Positions 722 through 63,680 of a stretch of 64,000 bases of DNA are shown here, one piece after another (within the stretch, counting starts at the first letter, position 1; each line of letters begins with the position of its first letter). Location: contig CAZXCI010000002.1 of assembly GCA_964639285.1 (NCBI GenBank), positions 45,660 to 109,659 on the forward strand, in the 5' to 3' direction. The notes under the pieces were generated by a model. The model did no database searches. It was not told where the DNA came from and saw nothing but the letters and a program-made list of their open reading frames with translations. Position numbers and translations under genes: made by a program. Source of the stretch: an uncultured Candidatus Saccharibacteria bacterium (GTDB lineage Bacteria; Patescibacteriota; Minisyncoccia; Phycocordibacterales; XYD1-FULL-46-19).

Positions 722-1174
722 GTGCCTAGCCTAATCGAAAATAAAAAAGCTGGTTTAAACTATGAACTCCTCGAGGCCTATGAGACAGGACTGGAGCTTC
801 TTGGGGGTGAAGTTAAGTCGCTTAAGGGGAAGCAGGGTTCGCTCGAGGGGGCCAGAGTTATCATTCGGGGCGAGGAGGCATATCTCGTCGGGGCTTTCAT
901 CCCCCCCTATCAGCCGGCTAATATTATTGGCGAGTATGACCCTTATCGGACTCGACGTCTATTGCTCAAGAAGAAAGAATTATCTGAGTTGGCGGTGAGG
1001 GGGGAACAGCGGGGATTGACAATTATCCCACTTTCGGTGTATAATAAAGGGAGGTTCCTCAAGTTGAAGATATCTGTCGTGCGAGGCAAAAAGAAGTTTG
1101 ATAAGCGCGAAGATCTCAAGAAGAAGGAATCTAAACGCGATATCTCGCGTGATCTCAAGAGCTCGTTGACATAA
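722..1174 (+). CDS. smpB: SsrA-binding protein SmpB
   Basis: The 150-aa ORF has an SmpB-like N-terminus (LIENKKAGLNYELLEAYETGLELLGGEVKSLKGKQGSLEGARVIIRGEEAYLVGAFIPPY) and a basic C-tail. It lies immediately upstream of the tmRNA gene. Confidence 0.85.
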   Translation: MPSLIENKKAGLNYELLEAYETGLELLGGEVKSLKGKQGSLEGARVIIRGEEAYLVGAFIPPYQPANIIGEYDPYRTRRLLLKKKELSELAVRGEQRGLTIIPLSVYNKGRFLKLKISVVRGKKKFDKREDLKKKESKRDISRDLKSSLT

Positions 1175-1179
1175 TTTTT

Positions 1180-1564
1180 GGGAGTGATCGGCTTCGACGA
1201 GTAGCCACTCTTTGGTTTGTATGTAGAGTTCCAGTTTACTCTTAAAACTTACTGGAAACTGTTAAATGCCAACGCATCTAACAAGGGAGGTGTGGCTTCG
1301 CCATATTTCTCTCCAGCCTTCGCTTTAGCGTAATGCTGGTGTTCGCTAGGTTGTTGTCTGGGCAATCTAACCGGGCATAATAAATTCAGACTAGCTTTTA
1401 AGATCGTCTCGACTTAAATGCAAAACTTAGAGACTCGATTATTTAAATTCTTGATTATTTCTGACTTAAATAATTTAAATCCACTTTAGTGGTTGAAATA
1501 ATCTAAACATATAGATTGGTCAAGGAGTTCTGTTCGCACGCGGGTTCGATTCCCGCCACTTCCA
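1180..1564 (+). ncRNA. ssrA: tmRNA (SsrA)
   Basis: The 5' end GGGAGUGAUCGGCUUCGACG matches the tmRNA consensus. The 3' tRNA-like end is GGUUCGAUUCCCGCCACUUCCA. A 7-bp acceptor stem pairs GGGAGUG with CACUUCC and includes the G3:U70 alanine identity pair, followed by discriminator A. An internal tag frame at 1268-1333 (ANASNKGGVASPYFSPAFALA-stop) ends in ALA. Confidence 0.85.
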
Positions 1565-1578
1565 CAAAATTTTTCCCC

Positions 1579-1606
1579 TTGACTTTTTGGGGGCTTTTAA
1601 TAAGAT
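1579..1606 (+). promoter_or_regulatory. sigma70-like promoter (TTGACT, 16 nt, TAAGAT)
   Basis: The -35 TTGACT at 1579-1584 and the -10 TAAGAT at 1601-1606 are separated by a 16-nt spacer, immediately after the tmRNA. Confidence 0.5.
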
Positions 1607-1617
1607 GAAGAGTGAAC

Positions 1618-2098
1618 CGGTTCTTTTTATAGGAAGTCGGAACGCCTACAGACGGAAGGAGGTGATAGTGGCGTGGATCTGTTTCTCTTTTTGTTCCCGT
1701 TGGTTTCCGTCGCACCGCCATCTCTTTTTATAGAGGGGAGGATGCCGGCGGAGGTTCCGTTTGCTCCCGCGTTTTTTGTGGGCTTGGCAGCGGTCGGGCT
1801 GTTTCCTTGGTTTTGGCCGAGGTTTCGCTCGTCTATCTGTCTTGGCTTTTTGTCTCAAGCTCTCACCTTGAGAGCACAAGAGAGAAACGCTGTGGCCTGG
1901 GTCTAACTGCACGGGCATCAATTAGATCCAGTAAATTCCTTTGCCCATCTGTGTTCGCCACTGTGGCGCGGTCGCAAGACCAACTTGTCGGTCTTTCTTC
2001 GAGGGGCCTTCCTTCGGAGGGTAAAGGTACTGTTCTGTTTCGCGTAGTTGGAGGCGCAGGGTCGTTTCGCAACTCGACCCTGCGCCTTTTTTCTTTTT
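1618..2098 (+). other. GC-rich transcription unit of unknown nature (candidate ncRNA, or short-peptide ORFs) bounded by a promoter and a strong terminator
   Basis: About 480 nt at roughly 58% GC in a roughly 40% GC genome. A perfect SD AAGGAGGTGA at 1653-1662 precedes GTG codons at 1668 (21 codons) and 1673 (77-aa hydrophobic ORF). No ORF has recognisable homology, and the segment ends at the terminator 2053-2098. Confidence 0.3.
2053..2098 (+). terminator. Rho-independent terminator
   Basis: A 12-bp perfect stem GGCGCAGGGTCG/CGACCCTGCGCC is followed by TTTTTTCTTTTT. Confidence 0.8.
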
Positions 2099-2282
2099 AA
2101 TAAAATATAAAAAATAGCTATCCCCAGGATTTTTTATTGTTCACTTTGCAAATTTCCAAAGAGGAATAACATTAATATTAGATTACCTGATCTTTGATTT
2201 CGGCTTTGTTGGGAGGCCCATTCCATAATGGAGTCTCACTTTTTGAGTAGTGTGGGCAACAAAATAAGGAGAACCCCCCACC

Positions 2283-2687
2283 ATGAAACGTATGCGCTTT
2301 TTTGTTCTGATGCCCTCCGCTATTATCGTAGTCGTAGCACTGGCCGTCGTCCCCGTCGCCGCGAAAGATATGGCGATACCCTCGGCAGAAATGACCATCG
2401 CGAAGATGCCTGGCGCGACCGCTCTGGAGACCACGACGATCAAGTGCATTGTCGACACCGCCCAGGTCCTGGGCGAAATCTCCGGCGCTGGCACAGTCGA
2501 TGACGCAGCCGAATCTTGTTTGGCAAAGACGCTTTTGGCCAAAGAAGATATGTCGGGCACGGAGGACGTTTCGACGGCATTGAAATGCGTTTTCGTGGCC
2601 GCCGCTGAAGTTTCTTTCCCCACGAGTACGGTATCGGCGCGCGGCGTTGTGCCTGATACTGTAACCACGGGGATCGCCGTCGCCTAA
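2283..2687 (+). CDS. Small secreted Ala/Val/Thr-rich protein (hypothetical), GC-rich
   Basis: AGGAGA lies 7 nt upstream of the ATG. The N-terminal signal peptide is MKRMRFFVLMPSAIIVVVALAVVPVAA. There are 134 aa and the gene is followed by the terminator 2745-2780. It is about 58% GC, so it looks foreign. Confidence 0.5.
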   Translation: MKRMRFFVLMPSAIIVVVALAVVPVAAKDMAIPSAEMTIAKMPGATALETTTIKCIVDTAQVLGEISGAGTVDDAAESCLAKTLLAKEDMSGTEDVSTALKCVFVAAAEVSFPTSTVSARGVVPDTVTTGIAVA

Positions 2688-2744
2688 GGCAAAAAATGCG
2701 CCGGAGAGTTCTCCGGCAAGGCGAAAAGATCCCCAATGATTTTG

Positions 2745-2780
2745 GCCGGTACGCAAAGCGTGCCGGCCAGTTCTTTTTTT
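2745..2780 (+). terminator. Rho-independent terminator, possibly bidirectional
   Basis: The stem GGCCGGTACGC/GCGTGCCGGCC is followed by AGTTCTTTTTTT. It sits between convergent genes. Confidence 0.6.
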
Positions 2781-2794
2781 GTCTTTCCCCTTTT

Positions 2795-4522
2795 TTATTC
2801 CCAACGGCAACCGGCGCTAAGATTTGCCATTTTTGCCAAGCGGCGACAAATGTCTTCTAGGCTAGTAACTTTTTTGAAAACATGATCCTCGCCGGCATAT
2901 TTTACTAGTTCGGCTGGCTTATTCTTCAAATCAAAAATTTTCTTAATATAGTCAGCCTGGCTGGCCGGGACAGTGTGATCGGCCGAGGCTTGGACGATAA
3001 CAATTTTTTGGTCACTTAAATTTTTGATTCGATCAGCGATATCAGCTTGATAATAGAGATTACTATTTCCTTCTTCTAGCAGTCCTTTGAACTGGACGTT
3101 GAAGATCGAATTTTCTAACTTATCCAAGAGAACAAACCAGTCTGTAACTCCATTGATGGGCATTGCGCCAGCAAAAGTCTTAGGGTTCTCAACAATTGTC
3201 TTAAGCGCGAGGTAACCACCATAACTATTTCCTACGAGATAAGTTGGACCAATTTTCTTAATCTTCTTTAATTCGGCAAGAGCGGTCAGGACATCGGCGA
3301 CGTCACCTTTGCCCACCTCCCCAGTAATACTCTGGGCGAAGTCTCGGCCATAGCCATAAGAACCACGGTAATCAAGTTTTAATACCAGAGCTCCGTTTTT
3401 GGCCATCTCACCCATCAGCCAATCATAGATGGCATAACCTAAGTAAGAATGATAGCCGAGAGCCACCTGGCGATAAGGTCCACCGTGGAGCCAGATAAAG
3501 AGGGGATAGCGTTTGCTGGAAGAATAATTGGCGGGCTGCATTAAGACACCACTTAATTTACCCAACTTAATTTCTTTTTCGGTGTAGCCGGTAAGAGGAG
3601 GATTAGCCGGAAAAGAGGAGAAATAAGAGAAGGCCTGCCCAGAACTAATCGTTATTGTCGGATCATAGAGAACGGGAATAGTCGAATTATTTTTGATTTG
3701 TAAAAACAAGAGCTTGCTTGCCCCACCATTGGCGGTAGTCACTCGTTGCATTCGCTGATTGTAAGAAATATTGTCGGCAATCTTTTGAACGTTTCCTGTC
3801 TTGGTGTTGAATTTATAAAGTGACCAGAGGTGATCGCTCTCGCGGTTGGCAGTGAAGTAGACGATATCTGTGTCCCAAGCTAAGAAATCGGCAATGGTAT
3901 ATTTTCTAGAAGTGATCTGTTTGCCCGGGAGTCGTCCTCCGGCGGGCGGAGTGCCGGTTAGATCAACCGAGTAGAGACTTGGGTAGCCAGAACGATCGTC
4001 AAGATAGAGTAACTTGGTGTTATCTGGCGAGAAGGAGAAGAGGCGAAGATCCTCAGAAAGAAGGTCCCAATAATTGACCTTGCCTTCTAATTCATAAGTT
4101 CGGATCTTGGTGTTGCCATTTAGGCCAATTAAGACAAACTTGCGGTTATTTTTTTTGTTGGTAAGCGAAGCTTCATAGTAGGCTAACCATTTCTCGTCGG
4201 GAGAGAGGATAATTCGAGAAGCATTGGTTCGGTCGAATTTTATATTTTTTATCTTGGCGCTTAAGGGTTCTGGGTCAGTGAAGGATTCAGAAACTTGAGC
4301 GGGTGTTGTTGACCCTAGATTTTGGCAAGATAAGTTATTAACCTGACAGAGAAAGATGTTTGTCTTTTCTAATCCGCCGTGGCGAAAGAGAATTTGGTTG
4401 TCATTAAAATCAAGAATCGTCGTCGTCTTGAGTTCAGCTGCGAAACTTAATTGACCAAGACCGAGAAGACTCAAAGTTAGTAAACCAAGAAGAATTGTTT
4501 TTTTATTAATACCTCGTAACAT
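2795..4522 (-). CDS. Secreted S9-family serine peptidase (prolyl oligopeptidase/dipeptidyl aminopeptidase-like)
   Basis: 575 aa with a signal peptide, an N-terminal beta-propeller-like region, and a C-terminal alpha/beta hydrolase domain carrying HGGP and GNSYGG (GxSxG) motifs. Confidence 0.7.
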   Translation of the reverse strand: MLRGINKKTILLGLLTLSLLGLGQLSFAAELKTTTILDFNDNQILFRHGGLEKTNIFLCQVNNLSCQNLGSTTPAQVSESFTDPEPLSAKIKNIKFDRTNASRIILSPDEKWLAYYEASLTNKKNNRKFVLIGLNGNTKIRTYELEGKVNYWDLLSEDLRLFSFSPDNTKLLYLDDRSGYPSLYSVDLTGTPPAGGRLPGKQITSRKYTIADFLAWDTDIVYFTANRESDHLWSLYKFNTKTGNVQKIADNISYNQRMQRVTTANGGASKLLFLQIKNNSTIPVLYDPTITISSGQAFSYFSSFPANPPLTGYTEKEIKLGKLSGVLMQPANYSSSKRYPLFIWLHGGPYRQVALGYHSYLGYAIYDWLMGEMAKNGALVLKLDYRGSYGYGRDFAQSITGEVGKGDVADVLTALAELKKIKKIGPTYLVGNSYGGYLALKTIVENPKTFAGAMPINGVTDWFVLLDKLENSIFNVQFKGLLEEGNSNLYYQADIADRIKNLSDQKIVIVQASADHTVPASQADYIKKIFDLKNKPAELVKYAGEDHVFKKVTSLEDICRRLAKMANLSAGCRWE

Positions 4523-4727: not shown

Positions 4728-6695
4728 ATGGCTAAAAGTAATGGCAAAATGCCTAAAATGCCTGCCCGTTGGCCAGGCGGTCCTAATTTTAAGAAAGGGA
4801 AGGTGCTGGGGCAATTTGGCAATCAGCTCTTTTTGGGCGTGCTTATTCTCGCCGTCATTGTCTTCATTTATGCCTCTGTCGCCGAGAATAGTGCTAAGAC
4901 CGAATCTCAAATCATCCCTTTGTCTGAAGTGGCTCAACTTATCAATCAAGACAAGGTGACAAAGATTTCTGTTCAGGGCGAGAGTCTCAAGATCACTCTG
5001 GCCGACAAAACGACTAAGGAAGCCAAGAAGGAGACGGAGAGCTCTCTTTCTCAATCTCTGGTCAATTACGGAGTACCGGCAGACAAATTAAGTAAGGTTA
5101 CGATTGAAGTTAGTGATTCTTTCGGCTTAGCCTTTTGGTTGGGGACAATTTTGCCGGTACTAATTCCTATTATATTTGTCTTGATTCTTTTTTGGTTTAT
5201 CTCGCGACAAGTCAAAGGAGCTTCGATGCAGGCCTTCACCTTCGGCCAATCGCGAGCTCGTCTTATTGATCCTAAAGATGGGTCGCAACGGGTCACCTTC
5301 AAGGATGTCGCCGGGGTTAGAGAAGCAAAAGAGGAGCTCTCAGAGATTGTCGACTTCTTGCGCAATCCAAAGAAATTCTTAGACATTGGCGCTCGTATTC
5401 CTAAAGGTGTTTTACTCATGGGTGCGCCGGGTACCGGCAAGACCCTTCTTGCCCGAGCGGTGGCTGGGGAAGCTAAGGTTCCCTTCATGTATCTGTCTGG
5501 CTCAGAATTTGTTGAGATGTTTGTGGGCGTGGGCGCTTCGCGGGTAAGAGACCTCTTTACCATGGCCAAGAAGTCGGCGCCAGCCATTATCTTCATTGAT
5601 GAGATTGATGCTATTGGTCGCCACCGTGGTTCGGGTATGGGTGGGGGCAATGATGAACGTGAACAAACTCTTAATCAAATTTTAACAGAGATGGATGGTT
5701 TTGAACCGACCGAGAAGGTGATCGTCATGGCGGCGACCAACAGGCCCGATGTGCTTGATCCGGCCTTGCTTCGTCCTGGACGCTTCGATCGTCGGGTGAT
5801 GCTTGATTCGCCAGACAAGAAGGATCGTGAAGAAATTTTATTAATTCATGCCAAGAAGAAACCGTTGGGGGAGGATGTCAATATGACCATAATTGCCGAA
5901 CGCACACCCGGTTTCTCGGGGGCGGATCTAGCGAACATCATGAACGAAGCGGCAATTTTGACCGCCCGTGAGAATCGACAGAAAATTACTCAATATGATC
6001 TCTTGAGATCTGTTGAGAAAGTGATGATGGGCCCCGAGCGCAAGAGTCATATTCTCTCTGTTCAAGAAAAGAAGATTACTGCTTATCATGAGATTGGTCA
6101 CGCTCTTGTCTCCTCACTCCTTGAATTTGCTGATCCGGTGCATAAGGTCTCGATTATTGCTCGAGGTAACGCGGCTGGTTACACCCTTAAACTTCCCTTT
6201 GAAGATCGCAAACTTCAGTCACGCAAAGAATTCTTGGCTGACTTAGCTACTTCGCTTGGGGGTTATGCGACCGAGAAAATGATTTTCAATGATCTGACAA
6301 CTGGGGCCTCCAACGATATTGCCGTGGCGACGGCTTTAGCTCGAGACATGGTCACTCGCTATGGTATGAGTGAGAGTCTTGGCCCCATTGCCCTTGATTC
6401 TGGGGCTCGCGCCAGCGCGACCGGTGGTTGGCTGGCCGAGAAAACGATTTCGGAAGATACTTCAATGCAGGTTGATCAAGAAGTTAGCAAATTGATGAAC
6501 AGCGCTTTGGCTCAAGCTGAGGAGATTCTTAAGGCCAACAAGAAGGCGCTTGATAATATTTCTACCGAATTAATTAAAGTTGAGACTCTCGAACGAGAAG
6601 ATTTTGAAAAACTTTTGATCTTAAATGGTATCAAGCCAAAGGTTAAGCCAGAATCTGGCGAAGAGGGGAATATTTTTGCACCTAATCATGAATAA
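4728..6695 (+). CDS. ftsH: ATP-dependent zinc metalloprotease FtsH
   Basis: 655 aa with two N-terminal TM segments, a Walker A motif GAPGTGKT, an AAA domain with second region of homology, and the HEIGHAL zinc motif. Confidence 0.95.
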
Positions 6696-7212: not shown

Positions 7213-7286
7213 GCGCGTGTAGCTCAATTGGTTAGAGCACAGAGCTTATACCTCTGCGGTTCCTGGTTCGAGTCCAGGCATGCGCA
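7213..7286 (+). tRNA. tRNA-Ile (anticodon UAU)
   Basis: A 74-nt cloverleaf. The acceptor stem is GCGCGTG/CATGCGC, the anticodon stem CAGAG/CTCTG, the anticodon loop CTTATAC, the T-loop TTCGAGT and the discriminator A. Confidence 0.8.
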
Positions 7287-7307
7287 CATATTTAAGACAA
7301 CCTTTAG

Positions 7308-62247: not shown

Positions 62248-62670
62248 ATGAATTGGATTATTGCGATGGCGTTGTGCTTCATCTTATGGAGCGTCTATGC
62301 AATCCCTGGAAACTTCGCCGAGAAGGTTCATGGGGTGTCGGTGAACATGCTCTTCGAGACAATCGCGTTCGTAGGGGTAGCTATCCTCTTGAGCGGGAGA
62401 ATCTGTGAAGGGTTGCCGAGAGTCACGGCTGGCTCTGCCACCTTAGGGTTGCTCATGGGATTAGGGTCAGCGGTCGGCTTCTACTTCTTCTTGACCGCCC
62501 TAAGTCTTGCACCGGGGACAAAGGGAATCGTTCTCGTCGTCCTGGTTGCCGGAATCACTTTTCCCATGCAAAGCGTCCTGTTCAGCTTCTTTGGTGAGGC
62601 CTTGAGCCTTCGCCAGTGGCTGGCCATCGTCGGGATGGGAGTTTCCCTGATCGTCTTCAACTGGAAGTGA
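62248..62670 (+). CDS. Small 4-TM transporter (EamA half-size / SMR-like DMT protein)
   Basis: 140 aa with four hydrophobic helices and a strong SD. The terminator 62684-62727 follows. Confidence 0.55.
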   Translation: MNWIIAMALCFILWSVYAIPGNFAEKVHGVSVNMLFETIAFVGVAILLSGRICEGLPRVTAGSATLGLLMGLGSAVGFYFFLTALSLAPGTKGIVLVVLVAGITFPMQSVLFSFFGEALSLRQWLAIVGMGVSLIVFNWK

Positions 62671-62683
62671 ACTTCCTCCCCTC

Positions 62684-62727
62684 CGCCCGCAGAACCGTCT
62701 GGCTCTGTCGGGCGGTTTCTGTTTTTA
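62684..62727 (+). terminator. Rho-independent terminator
   Basis: Stem CCGCCCG...CGGGCGG followed by TTTCTGTTTTT. Confidence 0.65.
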
Positions 62728-62769
62728 TGTAAAGCTAGTCCGAACTTTATATGCCCATCGGAGCCAAGA

Positions 62770-62798
62770 TTGACATACCGGTTCAAATATGTTAACAT
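62770..62798 (+). promoter_or_regulatory. Consensus sigma70 promoter (TTGACA, 17 nt, TAACAT)
   Basis: It lies just upstream of the AAGGAGG RBS and the ATG at 62822. Confidence 0.5.
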
Positions 62799-62821
62799 AA
62801 GAGGTAGAAAGGAGGTGTCCC

Positions 62822-63418
62822 ATGGACATCACATTGTGGTTCGGAGTAATTGCGGGCCTTATGCATGTGACAGCATTCGTTCTTTACAACAAGCAGATGC
62901 TTCGGGGAACTTCGGTTCCCAATGCGGCGACGTGGACACTTTGGGCTTTCCTTACGGTTCTGAATGTCTCAAGCTATGCGGCAATGAGTGGAGATCTCGT
63001 CAAGAGTATCTTGCCAGCCGCCAGCTCGCTCGCCTGCATCGCAACATTCTTCTTCTCCTTGTATAAAGGAAAGTTGTCGCGAATTGATACCTGGGATGGA
63101 ATTGCTCTGGCCATTGGGGCAGTATCAGGAATCGTCTGGTGGTGGTACAAATCCGCGACCTATGCCAACCTGATACTGCAACTATCGGTCGCGATCTCTT
63201 TCGTTCCGACCTATCGCGGCGTTTGGAGAAATCCCAGTGTCGAGAAGGCCTTTCCCTGGTATCTCTGGAGCTCTGCGTACATTTTGAGCATTGTCGTGAT
63301 CATTCTGCGCTGGAATGGCCAGTATGTCGATCTGGTTTACCCGATCAACTGCCTGTTCCTTCACTTGGCGGTGGGGCTTCTCACTGTCAGAAAGATTCCG
63401 ACGCCTGCTCATGCCTGA
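62822..63418 (+). CDS. Hypothetical polytopic membrane protein (about 6 TM), GC-rich
   Basis: 198 aa, Trp-rich and hydrophobic, with a perfect SD AAGGAGGTG 6 nt upstream. Confidence 0.5.
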   Translation: MDITLWFGVIAGLMHVTAFVLYNKQMLRGTSVPNAATWTLWAFLTVLNVSSYAAMSGDLVKSILPAASSLACIATFFFSLYKGKLSRIDTWDGIALAIGAVSGIVWWWYKSATYANLILQLSVAISFVPTYRGVWRNPSVEKAFPWYLWSSAYILSIVVIILRWNGQYVDLVYPINCLFLHLAVGLLTVRKIPTPAHA

Positions 63419-63557
63419 TACATACATGCCCCGACAGAGAAGCTTTGGCTCTCTGCCGGGGCTTCTTCGTTCATTGAAATATAAAAATTTTTCTGATATT
63501 CTAAAATCACAATTGAATATGGTGGCCTAAACCTACGCTTTTCAATTAAGGCTAGGC

Positions 63558-63680
63558 ATGGCTCAAAGTCCCGATGAAGACACTGAACCCCGCGTTCAGC
63601 AACTCTTCATCGGGCCATATCGGGAAACCGGTATGGGGTCGCAAGACCTAGCTAGCGCGGGGCTTAGTGTATATGAATGA
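63558..63680 (+). other. Structured GC-rich leader with a 40-codon upstream ORF preceding the T5orf172 gene
   Basis: Long stem CCCGATGAAGA...CTCTTCATCGGG (63570-63614) with an internal hairpin. GNRA hairpin GGTC-GCAA-GACC (63637-63648). The ORF MAQSPDEDTEPRVQQLFIGPYRETGMGSQDLASAGLSVYE has a stop that overlaps the downstream ATG. Confidence 0.3.

Follow-up and report, generated by a model that had tools for sequence, protein, structure and literature searches.

A conserved promoter-to-terminator unit beside ssrA in Paceibacterota: candidate for a fast-evolving small gene with a structured mRNA

The DNA analysed (the window) is a 64,000-nt stretch of contig CAZXCI010000002.1 (positions 45,660 to 109,659), and the subject of this report is a short promoter-to-terminator element, the unit, at positions 1579-2094 of its + strand, immediately downstream of ssrA, the gene for transfer-messenger RNA (tmRNA). 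Given the best matches of SmpB, which were to metagenome-assembled genomes of Paceibacterota and Vogelbacteria, the window is from a genome of the candidate phyla radiation (CPR)/Paceibacterota. The local gene order is IF3 (- strand), smpB (722-1174, +), ssrA (1180-1565, +, called by ARAGORN and matched by Rfam RF00023 at 141 bits), the unit, an open reading frame (ORF) for a protein of 134 amino acids (aa), a gene for an S9-family peptidase (2795-4522, -) and FtsH (4728-6695, +). The peptidase gene, which is convergent with the unit and has Pfam Peptidase_S9/DPPIV_N domains on record, is shown by synteny across relatives to be the conserved right-hand anchor of the ssrA locus. An initial annotation, made from the letters of the sequence, had described a promoter, a Shine-Dalgarno (SD) sequence, GTG codons, a terminator and the 134-aa ORF after ssrA, all of which were found where it placed them; it had interpreted the block as a GC-rich island inserted behind the tmRNA gene, the first part of which held no convincing ORF.

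Transcription of the unit would be driven by a promoter of sequence TTGACT-16-TAAGAT (1579-1606, +; -35 at 1579-1584, -10 at 1601-1606), which matches the consensus at 9 of 12 positions, and would begin near 1613 (+), judging from the promoter position. The -35 hexamer is overlapped by a hairpin of the form CCCC-TTGACTTTTT-GGGGG followed by CTTTT (1576-1600, +), which appeared in the terminator scan as terminator-like for the tmRNA and has a homologous counterpart at 3681-3705 of L006 (relatives are given by such L numbers). The 5' leader (1613-1672, +) carries the SD sequence AAGGAGGTGA (1656-1665), predicted to lie inside a 16-bp hairpin (1652-1694) with two GTG start codons in its loop. From the GTG at 1673, a 77-aa ORF (1673-1906, +) extends to a UAA stop codon at 1904-1906, and its product, which includes the stretch MDLFLFLFPLVSV…, is hydrophobic, Lys-free (grand average of hydropathy +0.86) and predicted to be helical. 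The GTG at 1668, 5 nt past GGAGG, opens a 21-codon ORF in a different frame (1668-1733, +; VAWICFSFCSRWFPSHRHLFL, stop; MAWICFSFCSRWFPSHRHLFL, stop); the same 5-nt spacing is seen in the L095 leader, and conservation of the peptide was not demonstrated. Two further predicted helices involve the 77-aa ORF, namely a long hairpin at 1702-1754 (+), the 5' arm of which is rich in pyrimidines and the 3' arm, which contains AUGCCGGCGGAGG, in purines, and a hairpin CUGGGUCUAA…UUAGAUCCAG at 1897-1931 (+) that includes the stop codon. The 3' untranslated region (UTR; 1907-2051, +) contains additional predicted hairpins (folding z = -1.9) and is followed by an intrinsic terminator (2052-2094, +) with a perfect 13-bp stem (2052-2064/2075-2087), a 10-nt loop and a T-run; the stem had been correctly described as perfect but was measured 1 bp longer than the 12 bp first given.

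The base composition of the unit, taken over 1607-2095, was 53.2% GC compared with a window average of 42.9%, and the sequence is G/U-rich and A-poor (A 15.3%). GC as high as this was found in just 0.8% of 489-nt segments of the 64 kb, and A or T as low as the A of the unit in just 0.3%, so that the composition exceeds chance expectation. The GC enrichment reported initially was evident, although not at the values given for it, which were about 58% for the first unit (measured, 53.2%; the 134-aa gene is 57.3%) in a genome of about 40% (42.9% for the window). The sole other stretch of the window with at least 53% GC, at 62248-63418 (62.2-63.4 kb), holds two genes for membrane proteins of 140 aa and 198 aa. 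In this genome, hydrophobic proteins are marked by sequence that is rich in GC and poor in A, and the composition of the unit would follow, as in the other membrane-protein genes of the window, from its coding for a hydrophobic protein rich in Ala, Pro, Gly, Phe and Leu; it is not evidence for foreign origin. No Rfam (15) family matched 1566-2100 at the gathering score, with chance-level matches only at E <= 10, and none matched the homologous loci of relatives, in agreement with the earlier statement that the unit could not be matched to RNase P, 6S or SRP RNA. These identities, together with that of a CsrB-like GGA-motif sponge, were dropped, as there was neither a model match nor consistent motif enrichment in relatives; GGAGG occurs five times in the window unit. 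A 12-nt direct repeat around the unit body (TTTTAATAAGAT at 1595-1606 and TTTTAATAAAAT at 2095-2106, exactly 500 nt apart) likely arose by chance from AT-rich promoter and terminator tails.

Conservation of the unit was evident from comparisons with relatives, which were gathered by exact-protein look-ups and by searches anchored on SmpB and the S9 peptidase. At the homologous site, in the interval from ssrA to the S9 peptidase gene, the unit occurs in nine Paceibacterota lineages (the window, L006, L089, L090/L105, L097, L099, L104, L106 and L109), the SmpB of which is, where known, 79%-88% identical to that of the window, and over this range it is single-copy and syntenic. Common to the nine units are the -35/-10 geometry, a 30-60-nt leader, a GGAGG SD, a start codon, a G/U-rich body of 300-520 nt and a terminator. 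Promoter hexamers and their spacing are kept in all nine lineages, with a TGn-extended -10 in most, and GGAGG stands 5-10 nt ahead of ATG, GTG or TTG in each. Thus, the autonomy from promoter to terminator that had been proposed for the window is seen in every unit-bearing lineage. A profile search with the leader matched homologous units only. The unit body is hardly alignable even between lineages with 88% SmpB identity, and BLASTN and sensitive BLASTN of the unit against 85 SmpB-anchored loci returned identical contigs only, plus a 49-nt promoter match in L006. In five same-species contigs, both the unit and the 134-aa gene are 100% identical to those of the window.

Exceptions to this arrangement were also noted. 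In L110 (SmpB 84% identical), the stop codon of the S9 gene lies 15 nt after ssrA (3689-3705), with no unit and no cassette of any kind; the parts of L086 and L088 that were fetched did not reveal the unit; and in L095 it is lacking and a different small gene takes its place. The initial annotation had held that finding the same block in all relatives would make it core rather than an island; the block in fact recurs in nine lineages and falls short of universality by the four loci just named. Direct adjacency of ssrA and the S9 gene, which it had proposed to look for, was found in one relative, L110, with the unit intervening in the nine lineages. The 66-aa gene of L095 (2011-2211) was considered as a unit orthologue with a replaced body and rejected, being homologous to a separate small gene of 91 aa upstream of the unit in L106 (- strand). 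Products of this second small-gene family are hydrophilic and share W-A-x-S-Q-I-[KR]…E-x-R, and the leader and SD of both genes closely resemble those of the window unit (GAAAGGAGGTGAT.ATG). Short cassettes with strong signals seem to accumulate in the ssrA-S9 interval. The next gene past the unit is for a deacetylase in L006 and L102, a patatin in L089 and a DPBB protein in L097, and for the S9 peptidase itself in L090, L099, L104, L106 and L109. Literature searches for a small gene or RNA adjacent to ssrA in Patescibacteria gave nothing relevant.

Maintenance of the SD-proximal ORF was indicated by its length, which is 40-147 codons in 9/9 lineages and 69-88 codons in six. In each of the nine the ORF was longer than most dinucleotide shuffles (per-lineage P 0.004-0.195), and the combined P by Fisher's method was 1.8e-5 (2.7e-4 when only one lineage of each related pair was counted). 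ORF length in a single genome proves nothing because A-poor sequence yields long ORFs in any frame. The sole pair of lineages with a trustworthy nucleotide alignment (MAFFT, codon-unaware) was L090-L106; other pairwise nucleotide alignments, at 40-46% identity, were excluded from arguments about indel phase and covariation. In the L090-L106 alignment, the two start codons share a column, as do the two stop codons, and the indels inside the ORF are 3, 6, 9, 6 and 9 nt long (5/5 multiples of three) compared with 3, 1, 2, 19 and 3 nt outside it.

Similarity between units was also specific to the frame of this ORF. Smith-Waterman scores for frame 0 were 57 for window-L090 (versus 36 and 25; permutation P ~0.005), 52 for L090-L106 (versus 36 and 25 in other frames) and 54 for L104-L006 (versus 26 and 27), and an RNAcode-like normalised score was highest for frame 0 in 6/10 pairs, including all of the better-aligned ones. 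A BLASTP comparison of the window product with that of L090 gave E = 1e-4 (single comparison). The products share a motif, [MV]P.E[VI]..[AS]P..[FY]F, represented by GRMPAEV..APAFFVG in the window, GDMPVEIVPSPSYFLG in L090, ERMPVEPIMSPWPALF in L104 and DVLAVEIVGPSSFLAL in L106, and the Pro codon of this motif varies at its third position (CCC/CCA/CCT). Codon position 2 of the 77-aa ORF (T 0.43, A 0.09) fits a hydrophobic protein. Orthologous ORFs encode 69-97 aa and some products are not hydrophobic throughout, that of L109 being hydrophobic at the N-terminus only. An AF2 model of the 77-aa product was helical but, at pLDDT 65, uninformative. In view of the open frame and its frame-specific similarity to relatives, the earlier verdict that the first part of the block held no convincing ORF was too negative.

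Folding of the unit was compared with shuffled sequence and with coding segments of the window. The + strand gave z = -4.2 with the terminator included and -2.6 without it, and folded better than the - strand; the corresponding + strand value for L006 was -5.9. Coding segments of the window spanned z +2.0 to -2.5, and the structure of the unit is on the strong side but not exceptional. RNAalifold applied to L090 and L106 indicated 86 shared pairs, 16 of which were changed on both sides, compared with 0-5 in slid controls. A 17-bp helix inside the ORF, the counterpart of the window hairpin at 1702-1754, has 10 variable pairs, all kept; an 11-bp helix has 8 variable pairs; and a stop-codon hairpin shows two C-G to U-A exchanges and places the stop in the same position relative to the hairpin as does the window hairpin at 1897-1931. 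These counts are from a structure derived from the same two sequences, and approximately 50% of random cells pair in such G/U-rich sequence, as judged from the slid controls. The SD is predicted to be paired in 9/9 lineages, which is a chance expectation in C/U-rich RNA, and the register of the helix relative to the AUGCCGG motif differs in L104. The pattern is suggestive of RNA helices being under selection besides the reading frame.

These findings favour, with a probability that we would put at roughly 0.55, the interpretation that the unit is a resident, strongly expressed, monocistronic mRNA gene whose hydrophobic product of about 77 aa evolves fast and whose folded RNA also matters. According to this interpretation, a conserved sigma-70-type promoter would drive a transcript of ~480 nt, with a leader of ~55 nt that ends in a near-perfect SD and a structured 3' UTR of ~190 nt that is closed by the strong intrinsic terminator. 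Translation would most likely start at GTG 1673 and yield a very hydrophobic, Lys-free protein, which is probably membrane-inserted. The sequence of this protein would change very fast, but its reading frame would be kept, and with it the expression signals and several RNA helices, including helices within the ORF; since helices are maintained, the RNA fold probably matters, for stability or for access of ribosomes to the sequestered SD. The neighbourhood of smpB, ssrA, the S9 peptidase gene and FtsH invites speculation about a role in protein quality control at the membrane.

Several results weigh against this interpretation. Taken by itself, the window gives no significant excess of length for the 77-codon ORF (P = 0.155), and an alternative frame stays open over 141 codons. 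Between L090 and L106, mismatches amount to 48% inside the ORF and 35% outside it, so that the UTRs are better conserved than the coding part, and the mismatch frequencies at the three codon positions (0.48, 0.41 and 0.56) show no significant gradient (P = 0.42). The 77-aa product has no protein homologue among 1.84 billion representatives (HMMER) or 5.8 billion clusters, in which it finds only itself, and searches of Pfam, NCBIfam, phage records (tblastn) and the PDB were empty. Furthermore, GTG 1668, which opens the other, 21-codon frame, is 5 nt nearer to the SD than GTG 1673, and in L089 and L099 the shared motif is in a frame other than the SD-proximal one. Finally, the MPxE motif overlaps the 3' arm of an ORF helix, so that the apparent protein conservation could partly be at the RNA level, and helices within the ORF retain pairing through many changes.

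The second gene of the block (2283-2687, +) encodes a 134-aa, Ala/Val/Thr-rich product with 4 Cys and a signal-peptide-like N-terminus (MKRMRFFVLMPSAIIVVVALAVVPVAA/KD), is preceded by a ribosome-binding site, AAGGAG, at 2266-2271, and is followed by a terminator at 2742-2780 (+; stem 2742-2770 plus T-run, from the terminator scan). The initial description of a second GC-rich gene for a secreted protein, with its own ribosome-binding site and terminator, was therefore accurate as to these features. The gene is 57.3% GC, with a GC content at third codon positions (GC3) of 0.66, compared with 0.44-0.55 in neighbouring genes, and G at codon position 1 of 0.47, a composition that appears convincing as a coding pattern. 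Its product found only itself in searches of 5.8 billion proteins, Pfam, NCBIfam, phage records (tblastn) and the PDB, and the AF2 model had a pLDDT of 44; to judge from these searches, the gene is an ORFan unique to the species of the window. It is carried on a lineage-specific insert of ~690 bp (~2096-2783, +), present in contigs of that species only, which can be deduced from L090 and L095, where the terminator at the unit site runs directly into the S9 stop-codon junction TTTTTTATT(C/T)CCA…. This cassette is the only part of the block that resembles a recent acquisition or a de novo gene, and the suspicion of inserted DNA was to this extent justified, although the cassette carries no mobility signature. 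Since the gene after the unit varies between lineages, the 134-aa gene is not a conserved partner of the unit; no transporter or bacteriocin domain was found, and the proposed toxin/immunity-like or bacteriocin-like pairing was not upheld.

Real mobile DNA occurs at the tmRNA 3' end (…CTTCCAC), which is the insertion point of GIY-YIG islands in relatives, as seen from junctions in L001 and L006, and the inserts in relatives demonstrate that this end is an integration hot spot in the clade, as had been supposed. In L001, L004, L006, L095, L099 and L104 the mobile DNA sits between the tmRNA gene and the position of the unit, and the unit is therefore part of the resident flank. An insert of 3,148 bp in L001 (6137-9284), also present in L004, is placed precisely after the tmRNA 3' end and before the promoter hairpin, has TTCCAC on both sides, and carries genes for a GIY-YIG protein, a 121-aa protein, a 233-aa winged-helix (wHTH) protein and an SSF transporter. 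This insert is polymorphic within the species, being present in L001 and L004 and lacking in the window, L002, L003 and L005. Given its position in same-species contigs, precisely at 1565/1566, the window represents the empty site and the unit is on the chromosomal side of it. The same left end of ~150 nt (TGCTACGCTAAAGCTTCGCAG…) and a small GIY-YIG gene follow ssrA in several lineages (L006 2099-2510, L008 2590-2990, L009 870-1280, L095 1388-1820 and L099 8900-9380); a GIY-YIG-type ORF, judged by reading the sequence and not by a domain search, follows ssrA in L104 (- strand), and in L090 just a 26-nt scar of the left end remains. These observations suggest that a GIY-YIG element has the ssrA 3' end as its target. 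A classical integrative element occupies the same hot spot in L111, where a gene for a 531-aa large serine recombinase (Resolvase plus Zn_ribbon_recom; 928-2523) stands immediately after ssrA. Elsewhere in the window, ARAGORN called a tRNA-Ile with anticodon TAT at 7213-7287 (Rfam tRNA match, 70.4 bits), and LOOT RNA (Rfam RF03000) was matched over its full length at 63524-63649 (76.9 bits).

In light of these inserts, the proposal that 1566-2800 as a whole was acquired horizontally, as an island at the tmRNA 3' end with a toxin/immunity-like or bacteriocin-like pair appears very improbable, and for the first unit it is largely refuted. An island would account for the atypical composition of both parts (53% and 57% GC versus 43%), for a location at a proven hot spot, for a 134-aa gene on a ~690-bp insert that occurs in no relative and has a GC3 of 0.66, and for the direct succession of ssrA and the S9 gene in L110. 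However, the unit is at the homologous site in nine lineages, downstream of the true insertion point, and absence from the same site in close relatives is true of the 134-aa cassette alone. In addition, as the initial annotation had itself stated for an integrase, no recombinase ORF is present in 1566-2800; a repeat of the tmRNA 3' end (attL/attR) was found neither as a second partial tmRNA copy in the window nor in 1100-3000; Pfam detected no domain in the 77-aa or the 134-aa product, bacteriocin, immunity and transporter domains included; and the gene past the unit changes among relatives. Compared with known genomic islands of ssrA 3' ends, the locus has the classic site and real insertions at that site in the clade (the GIY-YIG inserts with TTCCAC and the serine-recombinase island of L111), but the unit lacks a recombinase and an att-like repeat and is conserved on the chromosomal side, while the lineage-specific cassette is not positioned at the tmRNA end. 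The idea of a decaying remnant, pseudogene or promoter relic without current function is at odds with the retention, in nine lineages of a streamlined genome group, of promoter hexamers and their spacing, of SD and start codon, and of the open frame and the terminator; we consider it extremely improbable even though the body is near-random between lineages at 88% SmpB identity, the unit is absent in L110 and another small gene substitutes for it in L095.

In other alternatives, RNA is wholly or partly the functional product. The unit could belong to a new, lineage-restricted family of structured non-coding RNAs, in which GGAGG motifs and helices are functional, for example in protein or ribosome binding or in regulation by base pairing, and ORFs are by-products of A-poor sequence, any frame of which gives rise to long ORFs. 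Folding of the + strand beyond that of shuffles (in the window and in L006) and of the - strand, the two-sided changes and the fully kept 17-bp helix of L090/L106, the better conservation of UTRs and promoter than of the ORF, the five GGAGG motifs and the empty protein searches are all consistent with such an RNA. Nevertheless, this explanation appears unlikely: it leaves unexplained the confinement to the ORF of indels in threes, the aligned start and stop codons, the maintenance of the ORF and the excess similarity in frame 0, and its structural support is reduced by the derivation of the structure from the same two sequences in which approximately half of random cells pair, by a z without terminator (-2.6) that is in the range of the coding controls and by the shifted helix register in L104. 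Rather doubtful, in our estimation, is the related proposal of a new, structured, Paceibacteria-specific class of RNA beside ssrA in which a translated but nearly sequence-free ORF and conserved helices would act together, for example as a type I-toxin-like or translation-gated regulatory RNA, with function arising from translation and fold and not from peptide sequence. A type I toxin-antitoxin-like or dual-function RNA, in which a folded mRNA with a sequestered SD would encode a membrane-active peptide (the 77-aa product or the Cys/Trp/Phe peptide of the 21-codon ORF) restrained by structure or by an antisense RNA, seems quite improbable. The small hydrophobic ORF with its own promoter and terminator, the SD predicted to be paired in nine lineages, the drift of the peptide between conserved helices and UTRs and the hypervariable region beside ssrA would fit such a system, whereas the single-copy, syntenic occurrence over SmpB identities of 79-88% is unlike the usual patchy, multicopy distribution of type I systems. 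Moreover, a consensus scan of the - strand over 1600-2200, which weak promoters could escape, detected neither an antisense nor a divergent promoter, a paired SD is a chance expectation in C/U-rich sequence, and ORFs of 69-97 codons exceed those of typical type I toxins, which are small (<60 aa), hydrophobic toxic peptides; the L109 product is, in addition, non-hydrophobic past its N-terminus.

The preferred interpretation, that of a small protein-coding gene with a folded mRNA, can also be compared with known systems. The unit resembles small hydrophobic membrane proteins from unannotated bacterial short ORFs in its length of ~75 codons, strong SD, own promoter and terminator, predicted hydrophobic helical product, poor sequence conservation and lack of a Pfam family, and in that gene finders call its ORF in some genomes only; it differs from them in its unusually long structured 3' UTR, in the conserved helices within the ORF and in UTRs that are better conserved than the coding part. 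With type I toxin mRNAs of the hok/sok, aapA/isoA and tisB/istR types it shares a highly folded, stand-alone mRNA of 300-500 nt, a paired SD, a small hydrophobic ORF with a poorly conserved peptide, conserved RNA elements and a variable region, but no antitoxin RNA or promoter was detected for the unit, which has a longer ORF and occurs as a single copy, inherited vertically at one syntenic site. The small ORF, translation of which is favoured by the comparisons, and the conserved structure inside and outside it recall the dual-function RNAs RNAIII/hld, SR1/SR1P and SgrS/SgrT, to which the unit has no sequence or Rfam relationship. What would be new here is a small, unannotated gene that is specific to the lineage and has a structured mRNA.

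Correction of the island call places the real mobile DNA at this tmRNA gene in the GIY-YIG-bearing inserts, which are polymorphic within one species, and the resulting clean pair of empty and filled sites provides material for studying how elements target the ssrA 3' end. Annotation of the small genomes of CPR/Patescibacteria relies mostly on homology and therefore systematically misses small genes and RNAs that are specific to a lineage. The unit combines a fixed site across a family-level clade and strong expression signals with a nearly free-running sequence, a pattern that is expected of surface- or membrane-exposed factors in host-dependent bacteria, or of RNA devices in which fold and translation count for more than the peptide.

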